Positions 5,216 to 59,298 of a stretch of DNA of 64,000 bases are shown here, piece by piece; position 1 is the first letter of the stretch, and each line of letters begins with the position of its first letter. The notes beneath the pieces are model-generated. The model made no database searches. It was not told the DNA's origin and saw only the letters and a program-made list of their open reading frames with translations. This DNA comes from Antedon mediterranea (taxonomy: Eukaryota; Animalia; Echinodermata). The position numbers and the translations under genes are program-made. Where the stretch lies: assembly GCF_964355755.1 (NCBI RefSeq), contig NC_092674.1:11098001-11162000 (forward strand). The letters run 5' to 3'.

Positions 5216-5241
5216 GCAGTGTTTACTTTCTCAAACCAAAA

Positions 5242-6889: not shown

Positions 6890-6917
6890 ACACTATTTTG
6901 CTGGACTCAAACCAAAC

Positions 6918-6933
6918 GGCTCTTTTCAGAGCC
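6918..6933 (+). other. Histone 3' stem-loop (H2B)
   Basis: GGCTCTTTTCAGAGCC. Confidence 0.97.
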
Positions 6934-7174: not shown

Positions 7175-7314
7175 ATTGGTCAGATGTTTTGCCCTACTCT
7201 GATGTAATTTGTACTTTATACTAAGTACATTTGAGAATTTTGTTGCAAGTATTCTCAAATGTACTTGGAATAAAGTACAAATTACGTCGGAGTAGGGCAA
7301 AACATCTGACCAAT
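7175..7314. repeat. 140-bp near-perfect palindrome (64-bp arms), probable MITE
   Basis: ATTGGTCAGATGTTTTGCCCTACTC...GAGTAGGGCAAAACATCTGACCAAT, 4 mismatches, 12-nt loop. Confidence 0.9.
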
Positions 7315-8229
7315 TACAGTGAACAACAGCTTATTCGTCTTTATAAATGCCATTTCAGAGTACCATTGTAAGTGAGTTATAGCGCTCATGGTCAATGAGG
7401 ATGAGTTTTACATTTCATATTTCTTCTAATTTTATTTAGAATATTGCAATAATTAATTAGTGATTCTATGTAACAGCATCACTTTCTCTAAAGGAATTGT
7501 AAAACAAATGTCATAGTAATTTGCGCAATAGATTTATAATGTAGAGAAATGATTTTATCATCAACTTTAAAAGATAATGTAATCTTCTCATAAAGAAACA
7601 TTCGCTTTCGAAGTTAACATTGATTCAAATTGTTTGTCAAATTTCAATTAATTATCAGAACACCAAGTAAGATATTTATGATGATCAATCCTTTCTTTTG
7701 CGAGATATTATTAAGTTAAATTGTTGGGACTTCAGTCTAATATTTAACAAACACGGAAATCAATTAACATCTCTTTTGTTTTACCAATATTTAAATCTTA
7801 AGTACCACAGTAAACTGTAAACATTAGACAAATATTAAAATATAAATGGTGTAATATGTCTCTGAGGCATCCAACTCGGCATATCCTTGTGCATTTGGAT
7901 TTCTATAAAGGAATTAATGAATATCTCGAAAAGTTATACTGTACATTCTATTCTTTAGAATATTCGCGGTTAGCTAACTATGCAATGCACTCAAATTCTA
8001 ACTAAAGAAAATGAGAACAAAAAGCAAAACACTATAAATTTTATAGTGTTATAAAATAAAAATAAGTACTATAGTAAAGGTACTTATTAAACAAAGCCAC
8101 ATTTTTAAATTCCCGCTCATCTGGAACAAAGCAACAGTAATCCTGCCTGTCAAATGAACGAATTATATCGTTGGCGCGGAAGACCGTGATTGGCCAATTT
8201 GATAAAGGCATTCGGACAGGGAATCTTGA

Positions 8230-8688
<459 letters not shown>

Positions 8689-8721
8689 ATCATCATTTAT
8701 GGACCATTTCTCAAACCAAAC

Positions 8722-8737
8722 GGCTCTTTTCAGAGCC
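8722..8737 (+). other. Histone 3' stem-loop (H2A)
   Basis: GGCTCTTTTCAGAGCC. Confidence 0.97.
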
Positions 8738-10713
8738 ACCAAATAAACATAAAGAGATTTGATTTGTTTGTCTGTTGTTTTCAATTGTTGTGTAAAATTA
8801 TTCCCACCCAGTGGGATCCAATTGGGGAGGATCATGTATTATTCATGGTCGATCTAATGCACCCCTCTGAATGATATCAACTAATCAGGGAGTCTGTGCA
8901 AAAAGCCACCAAATAAACAAAAATTACCTGCCCTTGTTCTTGTAAAAAAAAACCCCTGTTTTATCACAAATATACTGACTTTATAGTACAGTATTAATAT
9001 TATTATATAATGAAAGGTGATGCTGACTGGGACAGGTAATATTGTAGTTTATTCAAACTAATATTAGTCCATCAAAATGTATACTTGCTTCTCCCACTCC
9101 AGAGGTAAACTACATGTCAAGACTTGTGCCTTTTTTCACCAATCCCAATTTGTTGTTTTTTCTTTAATTACTTCTTGAAAACTTCAAACATTCTCCTGTT
9201 GTTCAATCAACATGCCAGAATCACCGACAATTTCTAATTTTGTCTAAAATATTATTAAATTGAAGACAATTTTAGTTAGTTAGTTTACTGTTGACTCTTG
9301 AAGCTATAGTAATCTTGACATAACGTACTCCTCTGACATTAATCATTTTAAATGAACAAAAGTCAAACATTTCTCTCTGAAATAACAGTCACATACGTTC
9401 TAAAAGTCAAACATTTATTTTAAACATTATTTATCGTTAATAGAAAAAAATAGTGATTTGTAAATGTTTAAAATTATGATTTATTGTTATATATACACGT
9501 CCCAATCACGGGAAAACAATGACCACCACTAATTATAATCGATATATTAATATAATAATATATAATTTTTCATAAAAAGATGAAATGAATGGTTAAATTC
9601 AACCAAATAACTCATTGACTTCCAATCAATTTGAATATTTTTTGATTGAAGTTATAATTTTTCAGGTAAATAATAATTTTTTGTTAATGTGAATAACTAT
9701 TACGGTATGTGACATTAAAATGGCCTATTAATTATTTTTTGAGGGGGACAACATATCTTATAATATTAAATAATTATAATCTTCTTGTTGGACTTGTCAT
9801 TCAGGTTATTTATCTAGTAAATAATATATAACATTATCAGCAGATCACAAGAAAATTAGAATATTCACAAAAAGCAGAAAGTGGTTTAAAGATGTATTTT
9901 CACCCAAAAACATGACAAATGAAGGCTTTGAAAGGGCATCTAGCAGTTTTAATGAGTTATTTACTTCAGTAGACAAAATAAACGGTTAATCTAACCAAAA
10001 ACCATTGTCCGACCAGGAAAAAATGAAAGCAACAATTTGACTCAATTTTGCTTTGCGTCCCAACCACCACTTATTATAATATTGTGTCTTTTTTTAACTG
10101 TAATCATGCTCCAATACATCATCACACAACTTATTCAATATGTGTAGGCCTACTTCTTTGGTTATTGCAAAACAACTCAAAAGAAGTGAAAACATACACA
10201 AAAAAGATAACAGAATTATTAAACAATACCATCATCATCACATGACACAATAAGTTATCAACATTATTGTTACTACTGTATTAGCTTTTGATAATGCTAT
10301 AGAACCGTGCGAGAGTGGTCTATAACAGTGACAGCAAACATTAAGTTTTCCTGACATTTCATTCTCATGTTTGTTCAAGTCACCAACATTATTGCCTTAA
10401 AACAAAGCGTAAAATACATCGAAATTTATTTAATTTCGGTTGAATATTCAATTATATATTGTAATGTTTTCATATCAAATGTGTTTTTAATCAAAAATAG
10501 ATACAGCATTTTCAAAATTTAGCGATTTGTAAGTAGAATATGTTTAAAAAACATGAACTGAAAAGTTCCAATTCTCATATCTATTTTTTTAAACCGATTA
10601 ATCTAAATTAAACATTTCTTATAGAATAACAATGTATTTTCAGATACTATACTCAAAAATATTCTTCAAGATATAAAAAATAGAGATTTATAAGTGCATT
10701 TAAAGTGAATAAA

Positions 10714-10809
10714 AAACACAATTTAAGAAAAATATCTTGTAGTTATATCGAACACAAAAAGGCGCTGAGAGAGCTACAAACGTAAGTGACGTTTTAGTCC
10801 ACGTCCGCA
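10714..10809 (+). promoter_or_regulatory. H1 promoter: H1 box AAACACA (10714-10720) and CACGTCCGCA (10800-10809)
   Basis: Known H1-box motif plus the H4-type GTCCGC motif upstream of the ATG. Confidence 0.55.
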
Positions 10810-10901
10810 ATAACGTAAATAAAAGTGGAGTTAAGTCGTTGTGTTGTTTCACTCAACTCTCTACTCGACTTGTTATTTGTAAGTGTCTTGCATTCTCAAT
10901 T

Positions 10902-11480
10902 ATGGCTGACCAAACTAAAACTAAAAAGAAGGCTGTAGCAAAGAAGCCTGCTGCTCACCCAACGTACATCGACATGGTTACGGCAGCAATCGGTGATTTG
11001 AAGGAGAGAAATGGCTCATCTCGCCAAGCTATTGCCAAGTACATCCAAGCCAACTACAAAGTTGATCCTAACAACATGAAAACTCATCTCCGTATGGCTT
11101 TGAAACGTGGTGTCGAAAGCAACAAACTCGTTCAACCAAAAGGTACTGGGGCCAGCGGTTCATTCAAACTGAACCAGGCTGCAGCCAAGGCTGACGCCGC
11201 TGCCAAGGCAAAGAAGGAAAAAGCAAAGAAGAAAGCAGCTGCAGACAAGGAAAAGACTGTTGCAAAGAAGGCCAAAAAAACGGTAGCAAAGAAGGCCAAG
11301 AAACCAGCTGCAAAGAAGGCTACCAAATCCAAGTCACCCAAGAAGGCTAAGAAATCGGAGAAGAAGGCATCCAAGCCAAAAAAGGCTACCAAGTCTCCTA
11401 AAAAGCCAAAGACCAAGAAGCCTAAAAAGCCTAAAGCTAAAAAGGCTTCAAAGTCACCGAAGAAGGCCGCCAAAAAGTAA
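10902..11480 (+). CDS. H1: Linker histone H1
   Basis: 192 aa from MADQTK; winged-helix HPTYIDMV...GSSRQAI...GASGSFKL; K/A/P-rich tail with SPKK motifs. Confidence 0.97.
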
Positions 11481-11510
11481 ATTACTACTTCATCCATTTT
11501 CAAACCAAAC

Positions 11511-11526
11511 GGCTCTTTTCAGAGCC
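11511..11526 (+). other. Histone 3' stem-loop (H1)
   Basis: GGCTCTTTTCAGAGCC. Confidence 0.97.
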
Positions 11527-13328
11527 ACCATATATACAAAAGAGATTTATTTGCCTTGCTTCTTTATCTACATCTAATTCTTGTAAGAGCTCACTCTAAA
11601 TAAGCATTATAAACAGTATAATATTTATAATATGATGGCATAGAACGTCATTACTGTTTGACAAGATTTTTACTTAAAAACATGCAACAACTTCTTCACA
11701 ACATAGTATGCTATGATGACCTTTATCTGCTCACAGAAGAATAAAAAAGATATCACACTTCAAAACACTACTGTATACGTTTTCTACATTTCATAAAAAA
11801 AAAATGCACAAAGTATTTTTCTTTATTTTAGTAGTTTCTTAAACCTTGTCTTCTACGCTATCAAACTTTATGTGTCAAAAAAATGTGCTCATATACGAAC
11901 ATGACGATGTCATATCACTACCATATTTAAACATATCTATAAATTATATAACTATAAATATATAGGCTATAAATATAATTTTTCATATATAAAAACATGA
12001 ATTAAATAAACGGTTAAATTCAACCGGAAACCCATTGACTTCCAGTCAATTTGACTATATTTTGCTTTAAATTATTAAGGCAAACATTTGAATTTTTCAG
12101 GTAAATATTTTTATGTGACATTAAAATGGCCTATTTATAATTATTTTTTTCAGGGGGACAATATATCTTATACTGTAATAGTATTAAATAATCTTCTTGT
12201 TAGACTTGACACTAAATAAAATGTTAAAAGTTAACTAATCATTTTATTTATTAAATAATTATACATAACATTAACAGCAGATCACAGAAAATTAGAATAT
12301 GCACACAGAAAGTGGTTTAAAGATGTTTTAACCAAAAACCATTGTCTAACTAGGGAAAAATCGGGAAACCGACAATTTGACTCAATATTTTGCTTAAATT
12401 ACAGTTTTTCAGAATATTTTTCTTTTGATGCAATTTTTGATCAAACTGTTATTTATTTATTTTTTGTAACAGTGGCACACTTCACATTTTAAAGGTGCGT
12501 CTAACAAAAATGTATAATAAATGAAAGCACAAAATTGACAAAAATATAGGTAATCTTACTTAATCTACATACGGTACATGTAATAAAACCCATTCATTCC
12601 CCTTCTCCAAATATAACAAGTAAAACATGTAATTTTTAAATACAGTATTTGATTACTCTTAATCTACAAAACCAATCACTAATTCCCCCCACCCAGCACC
12701 TTACTTATAACATGAAGGAAATAATTATAATTACAACATTATTTTCTCCATAATTACAATAGGATGATAAACAGTGTTAACAAACAGGAAATTCCTAATT
12801 AGATATAGAACCAGTATAATTGTTTATATGCAACCATCACTGTTAATAGACTATTGTATTTACATAGGCAAAGGTAAAAAAGAATTAATACGAAAACAAT
12901 ACAGACACTTTTGTTATAAAATAATTAGCTGCTATCTAAAAAACTATACCTAATTTTACTATTACAAAATTACACTACAATACAGAACCAGACACCTCTT
13001 AATTTATCAATTTTTTTTATATTAATTAATTATGTGAGTTATTAAAATGGCATATTCATGTCTAATACACAAGTTCATAATAAATGTTGCTATGATTTTC
13101 TTAATATTCAAATTTTAAGCTCAATTCTATTTGTTTTAATTTCCCGCCCGATTCACAATAAAGCAATTGCCAAACCCGAACGAGGTCACAGCGAGTTATG
13201 TCAATGTTGTTTACTGTAGTCCTAGATTCACGTCCGCATAGAGCGTATAAATCCTTCAGCTTTTTTGAAGTTTCGGTACTTCACTTTTCGATCGATTTTC
13301 GTATCAATCACAAAAAGTACCAAGTAAA

Positions 13329-13639
<311 letters not shown>

Positions 13640-13687
13640 GCAGTACACACTCAGCAGCCGGCCAAACAAAGACTTCTCAAACCAAAA

Positions 13688-13703
13688 GGCTCTTTTCAGA
13701 GCC
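13688..13703 (+). other. Histone 3' stem-loop (H4 copy 2)
   Basis: GGCTCTTTTCAGAGCC. Confidence 0.97.
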
Positions 13704-14616
13704 ACCATTTGAACCAAAAGAGATTGATTTGCCAAAACATAAGCCTTTACCTTTTTATAAATATATACTGTAGTACCATGTGTTTTATTTGCTAATAGTA
13801 CTATTTCCTACCCAAATTTAATTAGGCTAGGTCTGACATTCAAAGCAAGCACAGAATACCAAAAAAAACCCTGTAAATTTGGGTTTTTTTTGCACCGCAT
13901 TATTATTTCTCTTTAAAAAAAAAGTGGGATGGGTGGTATCATTTCTCCATTGTGTAGGCATATAATATGACTGACATACGTGATTTTGTGATAAAACAGA
14001 CTCAGTACATTTTGTGATGTATTTAATATGAGTGTGGAACTTCACATTTTTCTTGTTTTCTATACACATCTTGCATTGAAATCAATTCAGTTATTGAACG
14101 AGCATGATTGCTTTGTTACCGTAAATTTGTGTCATAAAAAACTATGGCAATTCGATAGATTTGTATATAGTGTAATAAACGTATGGTTATCTGAATATAA
14201 AACTATAGTATACTGTGGTTAGATAGGTAGGAATTTGAACTTCTAATTCTTGTTTTCTTATCTGTACTGTGTAGATCTTCCATTGAAACAAATTCAGCTA
14301 TTGAAGTTGAATTTGGTCGATTTTGTAAAGGCTTCATCAAACGGGCATGCGAAGATGAAAGCAACTTTATTTTACTTTTATATTTTGTACATCATTGTTT
14401 TATCGTTAATAGGCTTATTTTGTTAAAAGCACTTCTTTTATTTTATTTTACGTACTTTATCTCTTCTTTGTGTCAATCCAACCATCAAACCATCGCGATC
14501 TCTGATTCAATAGATTTGTATGCGGACGTGTAATAAGCTATACATTTTGTCCAATCACATTACGTTTTCATAATTGCTTTCTCATCGAACCAACCGAACC
14601 GAAAGTCTAAGCTTAG

Positions 14617-15051
<435 letters not shown>

Positions 15052-15075
15052 TAGTGTTACTTTCTCAAACCAAAA

Positions 15076-15091
15076 GGCTCTTTTCAGAGCC
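15076..15091 (+). other. Histone 3' stem-loop (H3 copy 2)
   Basis: GGCTCTTTTCAGAGCC. Confidence 0.97.
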
Positions 15092-16314
15092 ACCACTTGA
15101 ACTAAAAGAGAATTAATATAGCAAATATTATTGTTTCTTTCAATTTATAAAATATGTTAAATAAAACATAGCGAGTTTTCATTCATTCATAATTTTTTTA
15201 ATCCTTCAAAACAGTTATTTACAACAAAATAATTATGAAAATTTCCATGCAATATTAAATGTAGGAATATTATTACCCAACAAATTGTCCTCTCAACAAG
15301 ACCACAATAAAACAATATACTGTACCAACAGCATAACTTGATCTGGACTCAAGAAATGGAGAAAAATAGAAACTTTATCAGTCAACTTTCCCCAATAAAA
15401 ACTGTCATATCATAATTGTTATGATACTTTCTCTGGCTTGACAGTTTTTTTTGGTTTATGATATCTATTTTTATAATAGCCATATAATTATTTGTTGTCT
15501 CCATTGTACATTACTTATTTGTATAATGCAGTGGCCTTTTTGAATGGCTAGCTTCCCAGGCTAGTCTTCAGAACAGAACAGTAGTAATAAAATCAAATAC
15601 AGTAATCGGACCTAAAACAGCACTTTTTTGTTGTTGAATATTCCATTTTAATAGTTATCCACTTTTTCCACAAATTTGATCGAAAAAAAAGTATTTACCT
15701 GAAAAAATGTAATTTAATAAAATAACCTATCTAAAGTTTGATCGAATTAATCTTACTTTTTCATGTTTTTTATACATCTGTAAATATAGCAGTCACAAAC
15801 CAACCCATAAACATTCATTATTTTGTATAATGGGTCTCTGACTGTTTTCTAACAAACTAGACCTTGAATACATGGATTTCAAAATACTGAAATACTGTAC
15901 TGTATAAAGTATACTTGCTTAACAATCCTACAATTGGTATGATATTTAAAAAAATTCAAGTCAATTCGTGTGCTTATTATGTAGAGAACAGTATAATATA
16001 GTCCATGTTTTTATGAATTGATTACTTCATTTTTGTCATTAAATTTTATTGTAAAGTTATATAGTAAGCGTCTATTAATTCGTAATTACTTCATTGTTTA
16101 AAAAAAAGGAATATCATTGTTAACTTTCTTACTTAGGCGTAGCCTTTAAAATGATGTAGAAGCGCGCTTTTTTAACAGCCAATAGAATCCGTAAGCTATA
16201 AATTACCAACCGGTAAGCCCTAATTTGCATATCACCCGCTATAAGTACTAAGCTTGCATTCACAATTTTCACTTCTACTTCTATTGTTCTCGTCGTAGAC
16301 TGAAATTGTAAAAC

Positions 16315-16683
16315 ATGCCACCAAAAACTTCAGGAAAAGCTGCCAAGAAAGCCGGTAAGGCTAAAGCTGTAAGAGCAACAGACAAGAAGAGGAAACGTAA
16401 ACGAAAGGAAAGCTACAGCATCTACATCTACAAGGTGTTGAAGCAAGTTCACCCAGACACCGGTATCTCAAGCAGAGCCATGGGAATCATGAACAGTTTC
16501 GTTAACGACATTTTCGAACGTATTGCTGGAGAAGCATCTCGTCTTGCTCACTACAACAAGAAATCTACCATAACCAGTAGAGAAGTCCAAACCGCTGTCC
16601 GTTTATTGCTTCCGGGTGAATTGGCTAAACATGCCGTTTCTGAAGGTACCAAGGCTGTCACCAAATACACTAGCTCAAAGTAG
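16315..16683 (+). CDS. H2B: Histone H2B
   Basis: Identical to the first copy except VRTT->VRAT. Confidence 0.99.
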
Positions 16684-16712
16684 ACACTATTTTGCTAAAA
16701 CTCAAACCAAAC

Positions 16713-16728
16713 GGCTCTTTTCAGAGCC
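16713..16728 (+). other. Histone 3' stem-loop (H2B copy 2)
   Basis: GGCTCTTTTCAGAGCC. Confidence 0.97.
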
Positions 16729-17771
16729 ACCAAATGTTCTAAAAAGAGATTTATTTGCGTTACATTTGTGTAGTTTCTTTCACATGGCGCCATCCAGCAT
16801 ATTCATCTCAACATCCTGATATAACCACCGCCATAATTTGTAAAATTAATATACGATATTAAATTGTCCCCATAACATAAGGAATGATTTTGATTAATTG
16901 ACCAATACCAAATTGACTATTTTTTTCTTTTAAATTATAGATTTTTTCAGTTACAGTAAATAATTTGGAATATAGTACAGTATGTGACGTTAAAAAATGT
17001 CAGTAATATCTTTAATAATATGATGCAGTATTCGTATAGATTCCTTACGTATACACCATGGAGAAAATAAGTTCTCTGTGCGTATACCAATCCGTCTCTA
17101 GGCTTTCTTATGTTTGCTGTCAGTGTTTTTGTCTAATACCTTTAGTTTCTTTATTGGGTTTATATGCTGTATAATACTATAGTTTTAGTTATTTACTGTT
17201 TTAGGCAGTGTTTATTTTAATTGTAATTAATATATGACATTGGCATATTTGAAATTTAAATATTAAAAAAACAATAAGTATTGGTCTTATCACTGAAATT
17301 TAATTTGAAGTGTTATTATGATTGTAAAAAAGCTGCTAAGGTTTATGGTTTGAATTGAAAAATTCATTAGTTGCAAGGACTAATAACTGTTACAAACATG
17401 ATGCCCAACAAATTAGTTTTATGCTGATAAATGACATCAGTTTATTATAATTCCTGTATGAGCACTTAAATGTCACCGTTTAAAACGTCAGTCATTTCAT
17501 ATAACATAATAATAGGAATTTATATTTATATCTTGTAAAATAGAAACAGAATATTCAAAACTGCTAATATAAATGCGCTTTTCATCAAGTAACAAAAAGA
17601 AGTACTGTACTCAATAACTAAGTACTTATTCCACAAAGCCTAATTTTTAAATTCCCGCTCACATGAACAAAAGCGACAGTTATCCTATTGTCAAAATGAA
17701 CGAATTATATCGTTGGCGCGAAAGAACGTGATTGGCCAATTTGATAAAGGCATTCGGACAGGGAATCGTGA

Positions 17772-18230
<459 letters not shown>

Positions 18231-24646: not shown

Positions 24647-27600
24647 GGTTGTCACGAAACCTAAGACCCAAGACCTAAGATTAACAATAGTTCTCTTTCG
24701 CACCTGCCTCGTATTTTAACTATAAATTTGTTGTTTGTTAACCTGTTGTTTTTGATTCCAAAAATGTCTGAACTCCGACACATAGTATCTGAAATAAATG
24801 GTGCTGTCATTGCAATCTCGAAGTCATGGTTAGATGAATCTGTAACTAACAATGAAATTGACATCAACGGATACACAGTTCTACGCCTAGATAGAACACG
24901 ATCAGGAGGTGGTGTGTGTGCCTATATATACGAAATGACGTTGCGTTTAAAGAAAGACCAGACTTACACATTGAACAAATGGAAGGAATTTGGTTTGAAA
25001 TTGTATTACAAAAAACAAAACCAATCGTCATTGGCGCTGTATATCGCCCACCGACAGATACTACTTTTTTAGATAAATTGGAAACTACGCTGTATAAAAT
25101 ACCTCAAGATTGTGAGTTAATTATTATGGGTGATATGAATACTAATTATTCAGACAAAGGTTCTGTTCTTTTAAAGAAATTGTCAAGCACGATGAATTTA
25201 TTCAATTGTTGTCAACTAATAAACTCACATACAAGAGTAACCAGTAATACAAGTACAATCATAGATCACATTATTTGCAATAATGATGACAAAATATTAC
25301 AATTTGGTACATTTGACATAGGGTTAAGTGATCACTCTTTAATTTACTGTACTAGAAAAGTAGTTAAATGTAAAGTAAATCATCACAAAGTTGTTAAACT
25401 AAGATCCTTAAAAAATTATAATGTTAATGATTTTACTTTAAAACTTTCCAATACTGATTGGTCTACAATTTTTAATTGTGATGATGTTTGTCATGCATGG
25501 TTCATGTTTAAATCAATGTTGTTAGATATCATCAATACAATTGCTCCTAAGAGAGAGGTTCGATTAAAAAATCGAACAGAACCATAGATGAACAGTGACA
25601 TATTAGAAAATATTAAAGTCCGTGATTCTTTGTTACAAAAAGTTAAAAAAAGAAAAGGTGATAAACAAACTTGGTCTAGGTTTCGAAAAATACGAAACCA
25701 AATACGTAGAGATGTTAAACGTGCCAAGAGCCAATACTTTACCAACACGATTGAGGAAAATAAGAAAGACTTATGGAAACAACGAAAATCATTAGGTTAT
25801 AAAAATGAAAGTAAGTGTTCGTCTAGAATTGTACTTAACATAAAGGATGAACTCTGTTTTGACAACAATATTGTTGCTAACCATTTTAATTCATTTTTTA
25901 CAAGTGTTGCTTCTAACTTGGCACGCAAACTTCCTAATAATACTATTAAGACCTTTGACACTGGGTCAATCAAATTTAAAAAGTACTATGAGAACAAGAA
26001 ATTAGATAAAGAGGGAATGAGTTTATCACCTGTATCAGAAGAGTTTGTACTCAAAGAACTCCAAACTTTAAATATTTGTAAGAGTACAGGACTAGATGAC
26101 ATTTCTGCTAGGTTCTTACGTGACGGTGCAAATGTACTCAAAGGTCCAATAGCTCACATTATTAATTTAAGTATTTCTTCCAATAATGTTCCTGATGACT
26201 TTAAAATTTCCCGAGTCCACCCACTTTTGAAAAGGAAAGATAAGTGTGACGTCACCAACTATAGACCAATCAGCATTTTAAGTGTTTTGTCAAAAGTTCT
26301 TGAAAGAGCAGTTTATGTTCAAATCGAAAAGTACCTTAAAGATAATAACATAATGTTCGAATTTCAGTCAGGATTTAGAAAACATTTTTCTACCGACTCT
26401 TGTTTTATCCATATTAATGATTATATTAGAAATCAAATGTCAATTGGCAATTACACTGGCGTTGTATCTTTAGATTTGCAAAAAGCATTTGACACAGTTG
26501 ACCATGGTATATTGATCGAAAAACTAAAGGCAATTGGGATTGGACCAATAGATTGGTTCAAATCATATCTTAAGAATAGGCAACAATTAGTATATACAAA
26601 TAAGGTAGAATCTAAGCCACTTGGAATTTCTCATGGTGTACCTCAAGGAAGTATATTGGGGTCTCTATTATTTCTATGCTATGTTAACGATATGAAAATA
26701 AGTGTAAATTGTAAGTTGATTTTATACGAAGACGACAGCGTTCTTTTAGTATCTGGAAAGAACCCATGTGTAATAGCCTCAAGACTAAGTTCAGAATTGT
26801 CAGCCTGTAATAAATTGCTAATTGACAACAAGTTATCCCTCCATATGGGAAAAACTGAGGCCATGTTATTTGGAACCAAACATAAAATGAAAATGGTCGG
26901 GGATTTTAAAGTATACTGTGATGAAATCCTTATAAAGACAGTGTCAACAATCAAATATTTAGGTGTAACACTTGATGAAAATCTCTCAGGTGAACAAATA
27001 TTAATCCAAAGTATAAAATGTATAATTGGTAGACTTAAATTTCTCTATAGACAAGCATCTTTTCTTAGAGAAAACGAACGAAAATTTCTTTGCTTTGCCC
27101 TCATTCAAAACCACTTTGACTATACGTGTTCATCGTGGTACACTGCAGCACCAAAAACACTAAAAAATAAACTGCAGATTATGCAAAACAAAATGGTGAG
27201 ATTTATTCTTAATGAAGGTCCTCGATTTCATGTAGGACAAAAAGAACTAGATAGCTTAGGGCTATTGTGTGTTGAGGATAGGGTGACTCAAATAAAATTA
27301 AACACTGCACAAAATGCAGTATAAAAATGTAGCATCTTATCTTGGTAATAATTTTATAAAGGCTGGGAACCAACATGCACATGGTACCCGACACAGTTAT
27401 TTTAATTTTGTTCCACCAATCTCTTGTAATGTTACAGATGGCACATTTTATGCTTCAGCAATTAAAGAATGGAACAAATTACCAAGTACGATAAAAAGTA
27501 CTGAGAGTGTAAATGTATTTAGAAATTTAGTTAAAAACAATCTCGCATCGAAACGGCATAGCATCTAAACTTATTTTTAAAAACTTTGCTTACCTCAAGG

Positions 27601-38331: not shown

Positions 38332-41300
38332 GATGAAGCATTGCTGGCCGCAATTAACGTCACGTAATCAGCCAAGATGGTTGTTAGTTCCACATTGAAT
38401 AACTCCATTTTTAAAAAACAATAGAAAACTCTTACTTAATATAAATATTCTCTTTATTTTTAACTTAAAACGAATTCCTATTAACACGTTAAGCCGGATA
38501 TATTAATTCATACAAATTCCAGTCATGCCCGTGTTGCATTATTACTAAAACCCTTAAGGTACCTACCTGATCATCGTAGTCCATCAACTCAGAAAGCAAT
38601 GCCACGTCCATCATCAGAATATCTTTAATAAATTGCAATCAAAATTGATCTTACGGTTCAAAGTGTTAGAAAGCGTTTCTTCGGATTCTCCTCAAATAAA
38701 AAAAATCCAATTTGTCGACTATAATGGCAGTACTGATTTTCAACACGAGAAAGCGGAGAATATGATTCTTCGTTATAAATCTGGGATTGATAGGTAGACA
38801 TGTTTGTGGATTTGGTTTTAGGCCGGTGAAAAGAAATGAATTAAGCAAACAAGTTTAATGTACCTAACCTCGTCATCTCTATTGGGCGGTTCAGCATTTT
38901 TTTCTATTTTAAATGAACGGAATAATGTAACACTGTAATTAGGATGAACTGTATTAACAAAGATTACGTCTCTCTGACATTTTGTTATTTTTTGTTTTAC
39001 TGCATTCAGTCCAATTTCCTTTTAAAATAGATATACAAGTAGTCGTTTGTTTAGTGTTGTCATTAAAAACAGATCCGATTGGTGACTTTGTGAAGTATTT
39101 TGTTATTCATTCAAGAGTTTCCCTCTCCGGTCGCGTACTCTTCCATCTATTGAAAAGCGAAGAGAATCAGCACTTTTATTGCTTTGATATTGAAAATGAA
39201 AACATCGAAACATCAAAATTGAGCCTATTGGAAAGAACAGTTATGGATATACTGTATATACTATGCATTTACAAATCTTTCAGATTCTAGACGTCGATTC
39301 GGCTTAACTATACAAAAAAAATGGAAAACAACCGCTGGTGTCGCTACGTAAAAAAGAAACGAATACTTTGGCAAGTCTGGTAGAAAGTTCATATGTCCGA
39401 TACAAAATGAGTTGTCATGTACATCAGTCAATGTCATTTACAACAAATACATGAATATTCATAAACATTAATTATAATATATTATAAATGAAAAAGCGGA
39501 ATTGTGCATGCTAATGAGAGACAGATGCTTTAGCATTTTATTTTGCGCATCAAATGAAGCAAAAGAATGACAAGAAGTTTCTAGTTCAGTATATTATACT
39601 CTGATTTTATTCATAAGACTCAGAGTTGTACAAACAAGACATGATAAACAGCAGACAAACATTGAGACAAGAAAAAAAGTGCGTCTGCAATAACTTTCTT
39701 TTCACTATTAAGCATTTTTTTTAGCCGAGACATTACATGCCCCGTGAGTATGCGCCGTAGCACTGGCTTATCTCTCATAAGGCATTGTTTTTTGTGCTAT
39801 CACATCATTTACTTAGGAATTATTTTATTTGATCTAAATTTGAAATAAAGATTGCTAATTAGCATTCAAAAGTGTCCAAAAAATAGCAAAAGCAGTATTG
39901 GCTTTAGTGACTTAGGCCTTGGATGAATAAACCATGCTCGGATTATCGATTTATACGGACTATTTTTACGGACATGAACAGCGATTTAACGCTGTATAAA
40001 TGAATTACTGTATTTCCATTAAATTTAGGCAAGTTTGTTTCTTAGGGTGTTTTAATAATTTCTAGCTAAAGCATTCAAAAGGAGCAAAGCAAACCTCGTT
40101 CAAAAATGCCATCATTTTGTCACATGCTTACATGATGTCCAGACAATATTTTGTCTGTACAGTACCTTCCAACATTTATCAATATGATACCGGTGACCAT
40201 TACATTAGCGTTACACTTACACAAAACATTTTTTTACGGGTGCATTAAGCTTGGCACATTCTTTTCTTGGAAATTACATCGAAATGCATACAAGTAAAAT
40301 TATTCCTATCAGGATATATCTTTGCCCGACAAGAACATGTTGATACTCACGTCAACAAATACCAGTCAAATGCTGGTACGCCGTTGTAATTATGAACATT
40401 AATCAATAGATCGTTAGTTGATCAAAATATTCATATATAGACTATGTATATCAATATGTTCTTTTCGATTTTAGGCATGGTGAATCAAATATATTGTCGT
40501 TACATTTCTAATAGAGTGCTTAGTAAGGGTTCGACGACGACATTAAATTACCAAATCTGAGCATTCAATAAAGCAAGCTAAAAATTCACAGATAAAAAAA
40601 TCAAACATGGCCACTTCCTTCAGCCCACACGCGCCTAGAACAAACTGCCAACAAGCAAACAACGCTGCTGCAAATACTTCCGAAAAAGATTAAATTTTTT
40701 GCCAAGCAGAAAGTAAGACCAAAATTGATTACAATTTAATTGTAAGCTGCAATTTTGGCGCGAAAAATAGGCTAACATAGGCATGCGCATGAGCAATAAA
40801 AATGGCATTTTGATTTCACATAGACAATACTTGGAACTATACAGTACATTGTTTTGGAACAACAGGCTTAAAATGTCTTTACATCGGTACTTGGATTACA
40901 TAAAAATAAATTTCAAGTTAATAAATTTTATAAATGATGAAACAGGCACATAATTTTATGGTCAACCACCGTCGTTTTCACAATTACACTACAATTCAAA
41001 ATAGATACTGTATTAACCATAGATTAACAAGACAATATATTTAGTCATACAACATCCAAAGAAAGTAAGAATTGTTTATTTCTTTGTTAGATGTACTGGT
41101 ACGTATGTACATATTTTATTTCTTATTACACTTTATAAGGTAATACTATACGGACACATTTTTACTTTATTTGTATCCATATCAACTTGAGTACTCATAG
41201 TTACGTTACAAATGTATTGTATAGATAGTATTCGGAATCGAATAAAAAAAGAGTATTTTAAAATCGTCTACATTCAAATTCAATGTTACGACTGTATAAG

Positions 41301-43899
41301 ATATAGATACAGTTAAATACTTCTGAAATATAAACCATCCATTTGGATCATTAACTTCTTCTAAAAATACCGCCATTTTGTTGTGACTTTCCACCAATCA
41401 AGATACTTATCGTACGGTTTAATCAAGTCTGTCGCATCACCACGACTCATAATTGCTAACAATTGTTGTTCCTCCCTCGGTTAACAAAAACACATACAAA
41501 ATTTGTTTACAACTATTTACAATTGTTGCATGTGTTCCAATGGGTTGAATTTCAGCCGAGAATCTTACTTGTTAAAATGAGAAAAGAAAATTATTGGCTT
41601 GTCCATAGTAAAACTTAATCTAGAGATTCTCGATTAAAATTCATATCACAAGAAGAGATACCATCAGAAACTTATACTCCTTAAATCAGGAATTGATCGC
41701 ATACTAACTAATTACATGACTTGTCTAGACAAACAACACACACTAACCTACTAACAACATTTTCCAACGGCAATGATATTCCAAATATTGCAGAGTAACA
41801 GAAAAAAACAAAAAAGAAAACCCCAAACCCAGTGCACTATACATCAACGTATGTGAATGATGACGTAACCACAAAACAAAGAAGGCAATACCAGATTTAC
41901 TTTCAACAGTAAAATACTACTGGTAAATTTAGTTTTAAGTTCCCTTCATACCTGCCACATTTTGGCATCTGAAGATTAAATTGCATTGCATTTAACATCC
42001 ATACTTAAAAGGAAAGTATACCCAGGTCAATATTTAAGGCAACTCTGGAAGGAATATCATCACCATTGCAAATTGTTGTTGTTGGAGACTACACAACTAC
42101 ACATCTTACATAGTAAAACTGGAAATTTCTAATCTATTTACCATCAATAAGAATAAGATAAACAATAAAATACTACTTAAAAGTTTGGCAACATTCATTA
42201 ATTGATTGTCAAATTGACCAATTAATTGACGACTAAGTAACTAAATATGTTAATCAATAAGCATGCATATTTATAACCTGTGTAATTCAGAAATAATCAT
42301 CGACCTTTAACCTTATGCCTAATATATATACTTTCTTTCATGTAAATAATTTCAGTAAAATAATTTCAGTGAAGAGGAGCTGAATAGTACTATTGTGTTT
42401 CCTTGCTGAATTATTAATCAAACTAATATTCCCAGCTTCTATGAATTATTTATGCAAATGAGAATGCAAATGAGTTTAATGGTATGAGCCTTATTTGCAT
42501 ATGCATACAGTATTTAGTTTAATGTTGCAGAGCAGTGTAAGGTGACCCATTAGCAAAAGCATTTTGAAGAAGCTTGGTGAAAGTTTAGGTTATAATGGTC
42601 AGGTATGACAAACATTTCCTTGATTAATTGTTTCAGAGTTAGAAGTGTTGTTCCAATTTATATCCAATGACCTAGCAGCTCCTGTAGTGGGTTTATGTAA
42701 ACCTAGAATAGAATATTCAAAATGAAAATACTGCATAATCATAAACTGATTGTCGAAATTACAGCTCTTTCTATAAAATAAAAACTTACAAAATATATTC
42801 AATTGTAAAACACAAATATCTAAAAAAATACATAAACAATTATCTTGTCCAAATGTGGTCCTTCAATGTAAAATATCTTTAAATTATCACTAAACGTTTT
42901 AAAAAATGATTATCGAAATTTACACTGCAAAATCACACAATTTCATTATCATTTTACTAGAGAAATTTTACATATGTTATTATCAAATTATCTGATAATC
43001 ATTATATTAATAAATTTGGCAAATCAATTCAAGAAAAAAAAATCACAAAAAACACAGTAGTGTTAAAGTGATAATTTTGGCACAAATTTGCATAAACAAT
43101 ATATGCATATTCACTTCAATATATCATCTTAATGAATTTGTCGAGGAGTTTAAATCTTTTAATATATCTTAAGGCAGTTCTTACGAACTACTTTCGAAAG
43201 CCATTTATTTTTATATATAAAAAGAATGTTGATTAATCCTTAATTTTGATTGAGCCTAAACTAATAAGAAAATATTAGACAAATTCTTATACATACTATC
43301 TACTAGTTATACATCAGTATTATTAACAAAAATAAATCAAAGAATCATTATTAAAAACAGTAGTCGACAACTTTGAAAACCAGCATTTTATTCCAGTTAT
43401 TAGTCTACTCATTTGGCACGTTTATATTATTTTTAACGATTGGCAAGAAAAAGAGTGAGTTGACAAAAATGAATTGGGAATAATATTTTGGCAAGCAATA
43501 TTATATATTTATATTTTAAATTGTATGGGTAGACTTTTTAAAAATGAGATGTGATACTAAAAAAATAGAAATGAAATAGAATGTTGAGCATGATCATTGT
43601 CACATGATTGCAAGCTTATATTTCTAGCAAAATCTAGAGCAAACTGGTCTAAACTGGATTGAAAGTTGAAAAATCTGGAGGAAACTGGTCTAAACTGGAT
43701 TAAAAGTTGCAGACTACTGATGTGAAAGGTCTGCAGCAAGGTGTGCAGCGCAAAAGCAAGCGACCATAATGGCCTTAGATTGCAATGTAACAAGTCACCA
43801 AGCAGCACTTGAAAAGCATACAGAATTTCAGCCAATAGGAATGAAGCCAGCTATATTCTGAGGAGCCTCTGCCAATTAGAGTCTGGATGCGATGGGGCG

Positions 43900-44030
43900 T
43901 TATTCAATTGCAGTAGCTGTGGTTGTTGCAGATGAAGGTGCATGATAGTATTTACAGCTTGGGCGGATGCATTTGCCTTTACCAGCATCACGACACATGG
44001 TCACTTTTCCATCGACAACCTCTACATACT
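43900..44030 (-). CDS. mbnl: Muscleblind-like, alternative terminal exon B (CCCH finger 6b)
   Basis: Pyrimidine tract plus CAG acceptor, phase 1; (E)YVEVVDGKVTMCRDAGKGKCIRPSCKYYHAPSSATTTATAIE*. Confidence 0.85.
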
Positions 44031-45386
44031 CTGCATGGCATGGAAAAGGCAAGGGTAATAGAAAAGACACATTTAACAAAAGCTACAAATGTTGACAAAA
44101 ACAGAGATGCCGCAGTTTCTATCTACAGTATATAGTTTAGATCGAAATAAAAAATTTTGAAATAAATTAATATTTAAAAATAAATGTTACTAAATTTTCT
44201 GATGGATATATTATTGCAAATTGTATGAGCAATTACAGAAATTTGTGGAAATTCATTTAGCAATTTAATTAAATTTGATTTGTACTCAAGGTAATATGTT
44301 TTAAATATTCTGATTATTAAATGAATCCACACAAATTCTCCAATTATCATAATATTAAGTATTAATAAGTGGTCAAAATGGTACACATTGTACTCTTAAG
44401 ATTAAGTAAAGTTTATCATAGAAACATTGCTACAACAACTGGCAAATATTTTCAAGTTTAGTGTGTTTAAACACATAACAATATTTGATAAATAATGTAC
44501 GAAACTTCCTTTCAGGAATAAATATACACACACATTAAATGTAAATTTTTAAATATAAGCTTCCGAAAAAATTGTGTTGAAAAATTTAAACATGGTATTT
44601 TCTGACCATGATTAGAGAATTGCTGCGGCAGAACTGTTTGTTAATAATATTTGCAGAACATTCATTCTCGCATAAAAAAAAAAATGCTAAAAAGAAAGCA
44701 AAATGTGGTGACATAACATAGAAAAGAAAATTATGAAAACGTCTACGCTACGAGACGTTCCCATCATGCATCAGTAATGAGTCAATAAGTATGTTCATTC
44801 ATTAAAAAGTGATAGAAAAATAAAATCGGTGGGTTTTTTTTTAAACAGCTAAAAAGGTATGCGGTGGTATTTGACAAGGCGCAATTAGAACACCCAAAAG
44901 GAGTGAGAAAAAGGCCATTAAAGGTGGAAGAATTTTTCTGGCGATAAAAAATTGAGTCAGCTATTCCTGCCATGCAATTTTTTTTTTTTTTAGTACATGC
45001 CAACTTGCAAACAAGCCTTAAGAGGGCGGTGTTTTCTCTTACAATACTTGCAATGTACAACTTAAAATGGTTATTTCCATTTTCTGTCTTACCATTCAAT
45101 GTAATATATACAAATTTTTGGTCTAGTTTCAAAACATGGCACGGTCATTGCACAGTCTAGATATACCATCAACAGATCACCAAAAATATATACTAAATTA
45201 TTTTTTTTTTCTTGTATTCCTCAAAAAGGAAATATATTTTATCCCCCTTCCATACTCATATTAAACGAAAAGTTCTTTGGAATGATGTTCAAGATTCAGT
45301 TGATGGTTTTAAGTTGCGGAATAAGCTGTGATCACATGATGTTCAGATGGTGATCAAATGTTCTTCACATGTTGCTCACATTGTTA

Positions 45387-45541
45387 TCACATGTTGTTTA
45401 CTACGGGAGTTGGGATTGCGGTGGGTATAGTCGATTGGACGCCATTAGGGGGATGGTAATATTTGCACTTGAGACGTGCACAGCGACCCTGAGCGGCGTA
45501 TCGACACATGGTTACCTTGCCGTCAATAATCTCTACATAGT
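45387..45541 (-). CDS. mbnl: Muscleblind-like, alternative terminal exon A (CCCH finger 6a)
   Basis: TTTCCTGTAG acceptor, phase 1; (D)YVEIIDGKVTMCRYAAQGRCARLKCKYYHPPNGVQSTIPTAIPTPVVNNM*. Confidence 0.85.
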
Positions 45542-46335
45542 CTACAGGAAACAGAACATAAACAACAAACAGGTCAAATACTAACAGTAAAACTATGTTT
45601 TATCTTTCATTTGAAACATTAATTGTAAATATGCTAAAATAGATGAGAGCAAGTCATTTTTTAAAACTTATTAGATTAAAATTTGTCACATTTTAGATTA
45701 AAAACAATTTTCTGTAACTTCAGGTTCAAAAGAATTATTTAATTGAAAAGACAATTGAAAACAATTTGAAATCGCACATATAATTATAAGGTGTAAATTT
45801 GGTAAATTTCATGAACATATCATTATTATATACCGTAATTACTATATTGTTAAATTTTGTTATATAGATTTGTACAAAAAATATACATTTTAAAATATTG
45901 TTTTAGTCTATTTTATTTTAATTTCATAATAATATTATGGCTGAAATTTGGATATATCTTATTTTACACTATTATAAGGCAAAGTATTCAAATTCATTAT
46001 AATTTGATTTAAGTTACCGTAATCATATTATGAATCTACAATTTAAACAGTAAAATAATGTTTAATATTTAACCAGATAACTAAATACAAACAAAACATT
46101 GTTGGTTTTTATAGCATTTTTTCATACAGAGAATTGGAAAAGATATGTTGTCCTAAACGGTATGAGTAAATTCTCCAGGGTTTAACGATTGTAATTAATT
46201 AGCAAATGTTAATGACAAATAAAGCCTTCTAAAGCTGCTCACTTAAGAGTTATCAATGAAGTCCCAGCTAAAGTAGGGCACACGTCGACACAAAAATATA
46301 GAAGCAGAAAAAGGTTAAAGGTTAAATAGACTTAC

Positions 46336-46417
46336 CTTCAGATACGTGTGCGTATTTGCAATTAGGACGCTTACAGTGACCGGACTTGAAGTCACGGCAG
46401 ACTGGCATTGTATCAGA
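46336..46417 (-). CDS. mbnl: Muscleblind-like exon (CCCH finger 5)
   Basis: TTTCAG|...|GTAAGT, phase 0-1; SDTMPVCRDFKSGHCKRPNCKYAHVSE. Confidence 0.9.
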
Positions 46418-47062
46418 CTGAAAAGATAATATTAGTGCAAAAACATGATGTAGATTATCGTATCATTAAGAATTTCAGCACATCAAAACCATATGAAGAT
46501 CTGGATCCTGCCAACTCCATGCCTTCCTTTTGAATCAGAATTTGAATGCATTTATATTTAGTTAAGCTATACAAGGCGCTAAATATCTTCAAGTATTCTA
46601 ACATCATAAAAATGTCTTTATTGTAAGTGGTCTAGTAAATGTAACTTGGTACGAAAGTGTGTAAAACTGGAAGGGTATGACATTTTTAAGTGTAGCGGCA
46701 TTTGTAAGTAATGGTGGTGATTGAGAGTGTTGAATCGCTATGTGTAACAATTATGATGCCTTTACATATCGGTGCGCTTTCACACGCAATCATGCATTAT
46801 AAATGAGAATGATGATGTCACAGTTGTTTGCTATGTTATACACATCTCTGAATAGAGTGTAACTAACAGCAACAACATAATGAAACAGCTTCATTTTCTG
46901 AACTATCCTGTTAGTAATATTCTTAATTGTTATCATTTATATATATATATATAATATATAATAATACGCGTGCGTACAACTGAGGACTAGTGCTGTTCCG
47001 CCGTACCACGCCGAGAATGTTAAAGAGTCGCTATCCAATCGAGTTCGAACAATACCATGAAA

Positions 47063-47134
47063 GCCCCAGTGGTCTAATTGTTAGGACATCTGCATATCAA
47101 GCAGGCGGTCCGAGTTCGAGTCTCGGTTGGGGCG
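47063..47134 (+). tRNA. tRNA-like cloverleaf, anticodon ATC (Asp), within the repeat
   Basis: Acceptor GCCCCAG/TTGGGGC, D GTCT/GGAC, anticodon stem TCTGC/GCAGG with loop ATATCAA, T arm CCGAG-TTCGAGT-CTCGG, then a T5 terminator; D-loop GG changed to TG. Confidence 0.7.
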
Positions 47135-47426: not shown

Positions 47427-47498
47427 GCCCCAGTGGTCTAATGGTTAGAACATCTGCATATCAAGCAGGCGGTCCGAGTTCGAGTCTCGGTTGGGGCG
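47427..47498 (+). tRNA. tRNA-like cloverleaf, anticodon ATC (Asp), second copy
   Basis: As above; D-loop GG intact, one D-stem mismatch (GAAC). Confidence 0.7.
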
Positions 47499-49890
47499 AC
47501 TTTTTCTCATTCTCACAGATTTCCTCATCTTTATCGTTTCTAATTAATTAATTAAATTTCAGTATATCACCGGGCGGTTTAGAATTAATGTTCTTTGCCT
47601 GATTTGTTTATATATATATATAATATATATAAAGTTCACATATTAATAATAACATTTGTTAAGGACACATACCCACCAAAATGCTCAAGGCACCAAAGGA
47701 CAAAATTGGAGATATTCTCTAATGGTCATTAAAACATCATATATATATATAAATTACCAAAATCATTTTTAATCACAATTAGTAATGGTTAACTGATTCC
47801 TTCATTGTTAGTAAATTTTGTGTAAATAGAAATAGCATAAATATTGTTGCTGGAACTAAACTATACCAAATACATTTTGATAAAATGTTATAGAACCAAT
47901 TCACCAATACCTAGATATACACTGCACAATAACAACCAACCAACCTAACACCATTCTTTATATATACCAGCTTTTAAATAATTTCAACTACATTAAACCT
48001 ATTGAGATATTACATTTTCAAATAAAGTTTTTTTGGTGAGAATTTATTTCACTCACTGTTTGAAGGAAAATGTGAGCAGAATACAATTAATTTGAAAATT
48101 ACTAATATTTTGATGTACTACATTGACTGTTATTTATCTTGAAAAATGAGTCAAAAGTCCAATAACAAATTTCATTTTTCAAACTCAAAAATTTAGGATC
48201 ACCAAAATGAAGATTTCTATAGTACACTAACATTATTACTTTATTTAGAATGCTGTTTTAAACAGAGTACAGTAATCCTAAAATCATATTAACTATTGTG
48301 TGCTTCTGAACCCCTCACCCACTTACCAAATCTGATATTTCATTATTTTCTGATCTCTACAAGAAAATTACATTTAAAAAAATTAAAAAAATTACCTATA
48401 GATAATTAATTTCATCAAGAATTAATTCTATTAAAATTATGGTAAAGAAATTTGTCATTTAAATCAATTTCATTATGTTTCCTTTGGGTAAATAAATAAA
48501 AAACCATTCCTCTTAATCTAAAAATTATTCTTTTATGGTAGAAGGACAATTGGATCTTTGCACTTAGGTAATGTTCAGACTCACAGCTTAAATGTATCTT
48601 TTTGTATGCATCATACACTTTTTCTGTTTGACCTGTGTGGATTTAGTACAAGACACAAGTTACACGTTGCTCGGAAATTGCAACGCAAGCAGAAAGACCA
48701 GTAATTCTGATTGCGACAAATGATGATTATTGTGATCATGATATTGATAACGAACCTCCATTTTCAAAAGGCACATGGAAGTTATGTTAGATTATAAATC
48801 TTAAAGCTGTGAATCTGAACTTCTTATTTCAGGCAAAGTCTACTCTACTCTGCCTAATCATATTAGAAGCTTTTGACTCTAATTTTCACTGTATTTTTAC
48901 ATATATCCTGCTGTTTAATCATAAACTAAAAATATTTAATCTTTTTAAGTACAGTTTATAGCTATTCAGTTTAAATTAAGAAATCCTTGAAGAAAAATGG
49001 ATTTTAGAAATTGAGTATCAAAGTGCATAGCAATCTAGTATAGCAATAATTATGTTTTTGTTTAATGTGTAATTACAGGTTATCCAAAGAAACATAATAC
49101 AACAGATTATGACTTTAAGCAACACCTATGTAATTGTAGATTCAACAATGGTATTAAATTAAAAATGTGCACATATATCTTGAAAGTCATGGCTTTTAAG
49201 AGTTCTAAGAGATGAAATTGTACACCAAAGCAATTCTTATATTAAAAGTAATATTTTGGTGAAATTCTTATGAGAAAATATTTAAAAGCAGAAGTCTAAG
49301 AGACACATCTTTATCTACTTGATACTAAAAAAAAAATTTAAAACAACAATAACTTTGCTATGATACAAGTTTGCGAGCTGTGCTACCTGTCAACCAATGG
49401 TGGAGCTATTATGAAATCCAGGAAGAAAAAGAAGAAATTGTCTGTTATCTAATCAGGACATCTTGCAGTTGAAATTTTAAAAAGAAATGTATTTAATTTG
49501 TCATTTCCAACAATAACAAAAAAGAAGCAAATTGAATTGACCATTACATGAAGGATTGACTTTTGTTTTTGAATATAAAATGCATATTCACCTCTGTTCA
49601 AGTTGTATGAGGCTTAATTAAAATTGTCAATCCATGATTAGAAACAAAAAGCTGATTAAAAATAAACCAGACAATTTAATTGCAGAGAACTTTAAACGTT
49701 TCAACTTTTCTCTTGAAAATTTTCCTTTTTTCAGCTTGCTAATATTTCAATTAGCTTTATAAAATCAAATTTAATCATTAATTGACTTAATAATTGTTCT
49801 GAGGCTACGCTAAATTTACATCTGTATTTCTTTCATGCACCACCACTGACTTGAGTACAAGCTGATTGTGAAAAAGGTTAATGTGACTAC

Positions 49891-49955
49891 CTGTTGAGCT
49901 TGAACTAGGTGTTGCGTCAGGTAAGGTAATGTGCCTTGATGTGGAACCATAGACA
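49891..49955 (-). CDS. mbnl: Muscleblind-like exon
   Basis: TGTAG|...CAG|GTAGT, phase 1-0, bridging the neighbouring exons in frame; (L)SMVPHQGTLPYLTQHLVQAQQ. Confidence 0.75.
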
Positions 49956-52288: not shown

Positions 52289-52406
52289 ATGTTTGGACTA
52301 AAGGCTGTGGTCCCATTACAGCAGCAGCCAATTGTGGATGGTACATAAAATTTGCTGGAACCATTGGTGCAGTCATTCCTGGTCCTTTCTTCATTGGAGG
52401 CATTGC
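52289..52406 (-). CDS. mbnl: Muscleblind-like exon
   Basis: TTTCTAG|...|GTAAGA, phase 0-1; AMPPMKKGPGMTAPMVPANFMYHPQLAAAVMGPQPLVQT. Confidence 0.85.
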
Positions 52407-53716: not shown

Positions 53717-53782
53717 CATTAATAGATCTTCACTGATATCACTGGTCCGTTTGAGCCTGTTTGTTTCGGCCGTGGTCGGAAG
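53717..53782 (-). CDS. mbnl: Muscleblind-like 66-nt cassette exon (NLS-like)
   Basis: TAAG|...ATG|GTATT, phase 0-0; LPTTAETNRLKRTSDISEDLLM, resembling the LKRP..FDL exon that follows ZnF4 in vertebrate MBNL. Confidence 0.7.
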
Positions 53783-57154: not shown

Positions 57155-57406
57155 AATCGTGGCAGCAGCAGTGAGGGCGGTGTTTGCCTGCGTGATGTGT
57201 TGCTGGGCCGATTTGATTCTCACTTGAAGATGAGGGGGTGGATGGTAATACCTGCATTTATCCCTCGAGCATCTTCCTTTGATGTAGTCCATACAGACAG
57301 TGGCAGTGTTGTCCGTAGAGTCTATCGTCACCTCTTCCCCGGGGTGTGCAAATTTGCATTCGTTCTCCCCCCGGGAGCAGACTCCTCTTTGAAACTCTCG
57401 ACACAC
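57155..57406 (-). CDS. mbnl: Muscleblind-like exon, CCCH fingers 3 and 4
   Basis: [22 protein letters not shown]...[32 protein letters not shown]; TTAG|...|GTAAGT, phase 0-0. Confidence 0.97.
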
Positions 57407-59091: not shown

Positions 59092-59298
59092 CTCGAGCCG
59101 GTCATTCTTTGGTTTGGGAGAAAAGGCAAACGGATAGGGAGAGTGAAATACATGTGGATGGTTAGGCTGGATTGGAACTTCCGCATACCCTGGTTGGGAT
59201 GGTGTATTCATAATCGGGGACGTTAAAAACTGACTGTAAGGATATGTAGCAGGCACTTGTGCTGTCCCCACTGACATATTGTTTGCGTATTGTGGAGC
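59092..59298 (-). CDS. mbnl: Muscleblind-like linker exon preceding finger 3 (more 5' exons expected beyond the window)
   Basis: AACAG|APQYANN...SPKPKNDRLE|GTAAGT; DRLE-VCRE is the MBNL ZnF3 junction. Confidence 0.93.

Follow-up and report, generated by a model that had tools for sequence, protein, structure and literature searches.

The sequence analysed here, a stretch of 64,000 nucleotides of Antedon mediterranea DNA (hereafter the window), contains the 3′ part of a crinoid muscleblind gene, carried by the minus strand. A profile of the two finger-6 exons described below matched RefSeq A. mediterranea muscleblind-like proteins with 100% identity, and these proteins, mapped back onto the window, delineated seven exons from 59298 to 46336. 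The matching RefSeq proteins display the WLTLEACRE.. and HLKTQLEINGR motifs, which places the gene in the Muscleblind/MBNL family, whose signature is given in PMC5041496 as tandem CCCH pairs (CX7CX6CX3H followed by CX7CX4CX3H), an LEV box and KxQLxxNGR flanks. Fingers 1 and 2 are encoded upstream of the window, and the numbers 5 and 6 used here for the last two fingers agree with the full RefSeq proteins.

In the direction of transcription, the seven exons are a linker exon ending in ..KNDRLE, located between finger pairs 1–2 and 3–4 (59092..59298; an exact match to residues 163–231 of RefSeq protein P0021); a cassette exon encoding fingers 3 and 4 (57155..57406), which is skipped in RefSeq models P0004–P0007 and P0012; a 66-nt cassette exon, LPTTAETNRLKRTSDISEDLLM (53717..53782), present in P0021 and absent from P0001; an internal exon placed by RefSeq protein mapping (52289..52406); a further internal exon (49891..49955); a 30-nt cassette exon (48327..48356), included in P0021 and skipped in P0032; and the finger-5 exon (46336..46417). 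The latter ends with a phase-1 GTAAGT donor that is common to all the last exons of the gene. The intron that precedes it contains, on the plus strand, two tRNA-Asp-like genes with an ATC anticodon (47063–47134 and 47427–47498), which lie in a tandem duplication of about 360 nt and are possibly SINEs or pseudogenes. Elsewhere in the window, also on the plus strand, we noted a histone cluster (918–18230) arranged on one strand as H4-H3-H2B-H2A-H1 then H4-H3-H2B-H2A, of which H1 was confirmed by Pfam and the other genes are presumably H4, H3, H2B and H2A, as well as a LINE-like element (24895–27324) with an endonuclease and reverse-transcriptase frame and a stop between the two parts.

The preliminary description of this locus, made from the sequence alone, had recognized two paralogous terminal exons about 1.4 kb apart, and this picture was borne out. 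Exon 6a has its acceptor at 45541 (..TTCCTGTAG|AC) and its stop at 45389–45387 (coding part 45387..45541), exon 6b has its acceptor at 44030 (..CCATGCAG|AG) and its stop at 43902–43900 (coding part 43900..44030), and the 6b acceptor lies 1356 nt beyond the 6a stop and 1511 nt beyond the 6a acceptor. As had been proposed, both exons continue the phase-1 frame of the finger-5 exon, yielding the two peptides quoted at the time, and each encodes an intact CX7CX4CX3H finger followed by its own stop. The two fingers pass the Pfam zf-CCCH_10 cut-off of 27 bits (43.3 and 40.7 bits for 6a and 6b, respectively). The acceptors, which had been called strong, are indeed two of the six YAG sites preceded by at least 15 pyrimidines out of 20 nucleotides in 46335–40609.

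The likeness between the two exons exceeds chance, as judged from a tblastn search of 6a against 6b (E 1.7e-11 within the window). Over 31 codons, their nucleotide identity amounts to 66%, with 9 identical codons, 12 synonymous changes and 10 amino-acid differences, in line with the earlier remark that the framework is kept despite many synonymous changes. Paralogous exons, equal phase, a single shared donor and separate stops together identify them as duplicated terminal exons. Neither a regular-expression search nor tblastn detected further finger exons in the window. Two short tandem repeats flank the coding parts: one directly follows the 6a stop (45329–45396; six copies of an 11-nt unit), and the other lies about 200 nt past the 6b stop (43629–43709; two copies of a 41-nt unit).

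The choice turned out to be three-way and not two-way as first described. A third acceptor, overlooked at that stage, is located at 42702 and opens a fingerless last exon of 34 codons, 6c (42599..42702), so that three acceptors lie downstream of the single donor of the finger-5 exon. Exon 6b is used in RefSeq model XP_071951224 and exon 6c in XP_071951226. Among the 11 Antedon RefSeq records examined, nine end in 6a, one in 6b and one in 6c; among the 10 examined for Anneissia japonica, the corresponding numbers are six, two and two. These counts describe the records examined and are not expression data. Exon 6c is conserved in Anneissia (models P0023 and P0028), and none of the non-crinoid records examined has it.

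Four sequencing runs, all available as contigs, were then compared over 40500–46900, junctions further upstream being drawn from loose ends and gene models. Run X1 comes from the same organism as the DNA-like runs and run X2 from a related organism; that both are RNA is a guess, no run listed as containing this sequence being recorded as RNA, and contigs convey neither strand nor transcript end nor level. The 46336-to-45541 junction, one of the two that the preliminary description proposed to look for, is present with canonical ends in contigs of both X1 and X2. The other, 46336-to-44030, is supported by RefSeq models in this species and in relatives, and no listed contig contains it. More generally, no joint from 46336 to 44030 or from 46336 to 42702 was found among the contigs listed for the four runs, an observation that does not imply absence as contigs drop rare variants; the 6b and 6c junctions are predicted by the RefSeq models. 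Two loose ends relate to exons further upstream. An X1 loose end at 46420 matches the 3′ end of exon 49891..49955, which is thereby joined to the finger-5 exon. An X2 loose end, matched by eye, joins the ..NDRLE linker exon directly to the finger-5 exon, with fingers 3 and 4 skipped. Skipping of the finger 3–4 exon (57155–57406) also appears in RefSeq models of crinoids, sea urchins, Amphiura and a scorpion; it yields isoforms with pairs 1–2 plus 5–6, and skipping of the same kind has been described for Drosophila.

The contigs also bear on the organization of the 3′ end. In X1, one continuous contig of 4602 nt covers 40609–45210 and is tiled by short overlaps to the contig containing the 6a junction. 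In X2, contigs cross the acceptors of 6b (43671–44116) and 6c unspliced. Contigs of both runs therefore run unspliced across 44030 and 42702. In addition, no AATAAA occurs between the 6a stop and 6b, where a single ATTAAA is found (at 44269). Because contigs read across the acceptors and AATAAA is missing between the 6a stop and 6b, we favor a competition between acceptors within one terminal unit: 6b and 6c likely sit inside a long 3′ untranslated region (3′UTR) of the 6a mRNA (40609..45386, as far as the contigs reach) and are selected as competing acceptors and not through separate UTRs. The earlier proposal of a switch by splicing or polyadenylation hence stands as regards paralogous alternative last exons, whereas its 'two 3′UTRs' produced by polyadenylation find no support. 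Within the putative 3′UTR (41703–45541), long non-coding stretches align to the X2 organism at about 85–96% identity.

We also considered an autoregulation through YGCY clusters near the acceptors. This idea received no support from dinucleotide shuffles, which revealed no excess of YGCY upstream of 6a, 6b or 6c (p = 0.84, 0.46 and 1.0, respectively). Three of the 11 regions tested gave p < 0.05, namely two overlapping regions after the 6b stop (0.048 and 0.046) and one downstream of the finger 3–4 exon (0.002, 4 sites). Note that mononucleotide shuffles overstated the signal compared to dinucleotide shuffles.

We then compared the residues of the two fingers, using the human numbering of PMC9780971 (M222, Y224, K226, K235, Y236). 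The residue two positions after the first cysteine (Cys1+2, human D223) is Tyr in 10/10 6a rows and Asp in 11/11 6b rows. At the position of human K226 (+5), 6a has Gln and 6b Lys or Arg; at that of human R228 (+7), 6a has Arg and 6b Lys. These fixed differences lie inside the finger, while the tails are poorly conserved between classes. The Asp at Cys1+2 is otherwise nearly constant among the distinct fingers examined: it is found in 42/42 ZF2, 52/52 ZF4, 43/43 ZF5 and 55/61 last fingers, and the six last fingers devoid of it comprise five 6a-type fingers with Tyr and one Ciona finger with Asn. According to PMC13450212, E187 and D223 are RNA-binding residues, and Y236 is described as stacking in the GC step (PMC9780971, PMC3880588). 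Finger 5 and finger 6b both combine an acidic residue at Cys1+2 with an aromatic residue at Cys3+2; finger 6a has the aromatic residue, but Tyr at Cys1+2. The stacking aromatic and an Arg at +10 are retained in all 21 ambulacrarian rows.

The best solved relatives of 6a and 6b are fingers 2 and 4 of MBNL1/2 (E 4e-11 and 1e-9), and in AlphaFold models the 5+6a and 5+6b pairs are predicted at a pLDDT of about 90 with the strand/helix pattern of pairs 1–2 and 3–4, strands of the third pair being contributed by both exon 5 and exon 6. The ten best Foldseek hits of the full protein are all MBNL1/2, but this result is driven by pairs 1–2 and 3–4. Two features set pair 5–6 apart. Finger 5 is CX7CX4CX3H and not CX7CX6CX3H, so the pair departs from the canonical MBNL tandem domain. 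Moreover, the C-terminal helix seen after fingers 2 and 4 in the AlphaFold models is missing after 6a and 6b. Since a human ZF1–2 fragment lacking its C-terminal helix showed no RNA binding according to PMC3880588, and the importance of this helix is also reported in PMC5888374, RNA binding by the third pair may be weak or even lacking. Human pairs that fold alike are described as differing in specificity (PMC5888374).

A third pair is by no means restricted to crinoids. Named records of the sponge Oscarella, the corals Stylophora and Pocillopora, a scorpion and a sea spider, as well as of pearl oyster, fly (Eurosta), tapeworm, Trichinella, Ciona and amphioxus, have at their C terminus a pair with the same linker and with fingers starting with CRD(F/A). 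Among the matches returned, a third pair was found in no named vertebrate protein, and vertebrate MBNL proteins are described as having four fingers (PMC9780971, PMC11837677). Orthology of the third pair across animals is inferred from motif and position. Since the last finger of this pair in other animals is of the 6b type, the Asp-type finger (CRDAGKGKC..) would be ancestral and the Tyr-type finger of 6a (CRYAAQGRC..) a derived copy. The Ciona 'zinc finger X1' was used in PMC5041496, which notes that finger number varies; because the Ciona X1 record has six fingers, Figure 1A or S1 of that paper may already display a third pair.

Some records depart from this layout. The Branchiostoma models P0305–P0318 and P0328 stop after finger 5 with no finger 6 and have a tail starting with G-E-A, which has no similarity to crinoid 6c and could be donor read-through and not a separate exon. 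Six records (P0106, P0108, P0109, P0113, P0118 and P0123) are six- or seven-finger proteins with MBNL-like pairs whose flanks diverge. They may be relatives from outside the animals, in which case the three-pair layout would reach further back.

Both finger exons are conserved in relatives, as the preliminary description had suggested checking: they are annotated in other echinoderms and in a hemichordate. Both complete finger types were found in 8 of the 13 named echinoderm and hemichordate species examined, namely the crinoids Antedon and Anneissia, the sea urchins Strongylocentrotus and two Lytechinus, the brittle star Amphiura, the sea cucumber Apostichopus (with 6a and 6b from two different assemblies) and the hemichordate Ptychodera, an acorn worm. 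Four species displayed a single type among the record clusters opened (6b in two Diadema, 6a in Acanthaster and Glandiceps). In the Saccoglossus model P0283, the first half of 6a is joined in frame to the whole of 6b, so that either the annotation is at fault or 6a really contains an internal donor. The Amphiura models P0045–P0071 form two near-identical sets of isoforms on two contigs, probably haplotypes. An Asp-type finger is present in 18 of 33 Branchiostoma records; the other 15 have none, and the Tyr type does not occur among them. Finger 6b is identical in Antedon and Anneissia and 72–83% identical between echinoderms and Ptychodera, and most sea-urchin models use it (18/20 Strongylocentrotus records).

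When 31 rows were placed in a tree, a branch with support 91/83, not starred, separated the ten 6a rows from the others. This support was 90/81 in a reduced tree built without the Asp/Tyr column and without five rows that the 31-row tree includes (Ciona, Eurosta, Taenia, Trichinella and P0188). For 20/20 rows, which are not independent, the nearest row is the same finger type in the other phylum. Given the annotation of the two finger exons in 8 of the 13 species, the duplication likely predates the echinoderm–hemichordate split, and it is likely older than the first guess made from the window. Echinoderms and hemichordates diverged more than 500 million years ago. The simplest, although unproven, way to read these comparisons is that the exon was duplicated in tandem once, in the ancestor of ambulacrarians: with 30 columns, approximately unbiased (AU) tests rejected neither a crinoid-only origin (p 0.10) nor an echinoderm-only origin (p 0.082).

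Altogether, these data lead us to propose a model in which acceptor choice probably sets the state of the third pair, giving the ancestral Asp finger (6b), the derived Tyr finger (6a) or none (6c), which would retune or disable RNA binding by this module. The acceptor picked by the single donor would decide how the third zinc-finger pair is completed. Finger 6b, which has kept the Asp and the stacking aromatic, would bind GC steps like other MBNL fingers; the base reading of finger 6a, with Tyr and Gln at the D223 and K226 positions and the aromatic retained, would be altered or weakened; and exon 6c would likely disable the module, since finger 5 would lose the exon 6 strands of the predicted shared sheet. 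The 3′UTRs would be nested: the 6b and 6c mRNAs would share the end of the 6a mRNA, shortened by 1.5 and 2.8 kb, respectively. Combined with skipping of the finger 3–4 exon, the choice of last exon would let a single gene produce a combinatorial range of MBNL proteins.

Other explanations have to be weighed against this model. The differences under selection could reside in a protein-contact surface, in the tails or in UTR length, the finger being structural and the third pair not an independent RNA-reading module. The lack of a C-terminal helix in both models, given the importance ascribed to it in PMC3880588 and PMC5888374, points in that direction, as do tails that differ greatly (e.g. the long Ala/Ser/His tail of sea-urchin 6b); yet the differences that are fixed map inside the finger, the tails being poorly conserved between classes, and the stacking aromatic and Arg +10 have persisted in every ambulacrarian row, so that we regard this explanation as rather unlikely. 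Somewhat less credible still is a switch driven by polyadenylation, in which cleavage after 6a would produce a short mRNA and 6b would be used only when that site is skipped, each with its own 3′UTR. The ATTAAA at 44269 could serve such a switch, and contigs, which cannot show ends, leave room for a minor site; on the other hand, 45387–44030 is devoid of AATAAA, contigs without splicing at the 6b acceptor span it in X1 as well as in X2, and the X1 contig extends from 45210 to 40609.

It could also be argued that 6b is a relic surviving in the 3′UTR and that its gene models are artefacts of homology-built annotation. The unspliced contigs of X1 and X2, the single Antedon model out of 11 that uses 6b and the chimeric look of the Saccoglossus model would agree with such a relic, but one would hardly expect it to have an intact acceptor, phase and stop, a finger identical in the two crinoids and 72–83% identical between the phyla, and a dominant place in the Strongylocentrotus models; this explanation is very improbable. 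A last alternative concerns the history and not the mechanism, namely that the duplication arose repeatedly and that the Tyr-type copies of hemichordates and echinoderms are convergent. The AU tests leave space for lineage-specific origins, but Tyr+2, Gln+5 and Arg+7 occur together in 10/10 6a rows and the 6a-then-6b order is shared by the window and the Saccoglossus model, which makes repeated origins improbable. We thus retain, as the most likely explanation, acceptor choice between two finger types and a fingerless end, with a probable common origin of the finger exons.

How does this arrangement relate to known systems? Vertebrate MBNL1–3 have the orthologous pairs 1–2 and 3–4, and their ZF2 and ZF4 share with 6a and 6b the CX7CX4CX3H spacing and the stacking aromatic; they have four fingers, whereas the Antedon gene adds a third, helix-less pair whose last finger comes from duplicated alternative exons. 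MBNL proteins are usually described with one or two finger pairs (PMC3315501). In Drosophila muscleblind, as reported in PMC3315501, finger-pair content is likewise set by alternative splicing: the second pair is carried by a single cassette exon, and isoforms that have either one tandem finger motif or two rescue splicing targets unequally. The fly switch, however, includes or skips a whole pair, whereas the Antedon gene replaces a single finger by its paralogue. The divergent MblF motif described in the same paper may correspond to the third pair, which is present in a fly, Eurosta.

Duplicated alternative exons through which a specificity residue is exchanged are a kind of device already known. 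In NALCN (PMC3557258), alternative pore exons of invertebrates swap a specificity residue and vertebrates keep one form. By contrast with these internal exons of an ion channel, the muscleblind exons are terminal, belong to an RNA-binding protein, have their own stops, are probably nested in a 3′UTR and are accompanied by a third, fingerless exit. In the literature searched, which mostly excludes subscription journals, no paper that we found deals with muscleblind isoforms of echinoderms or hemichordates, with a third pair of MBNL fingers or with such an exon duplication. The feature is thus real, ancient and already present in automated RefSeq annotation, and apparently undescribed in that literature.

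The two forms of last finger found in ambulacrarians have different residues at an RNA-binding position that hardly varies elsewhere, and finger specificity in MBNL has so far been approached by engineered domain swaps (PMC5888374). The 6a/6b pair therefore offers a ready-made natural experiment on the determinants of this specificity, one that is testable in sea urchin embryos and with standard MBNL splicing reporters. More speculatively, and with distinctly less confidence than for the acceptor choice itself, one may imagine that the ancestral animal muscleblind had three pairs, the third being lost in vertebrates, and that ambulacrarians have for more than 500 million years switched between a YGCY-reading finger and a finger reading a different motif. 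If this reading is true, ambulacrarian MBNL would carry a natural switch of specificity, one that includes an off state of its own.
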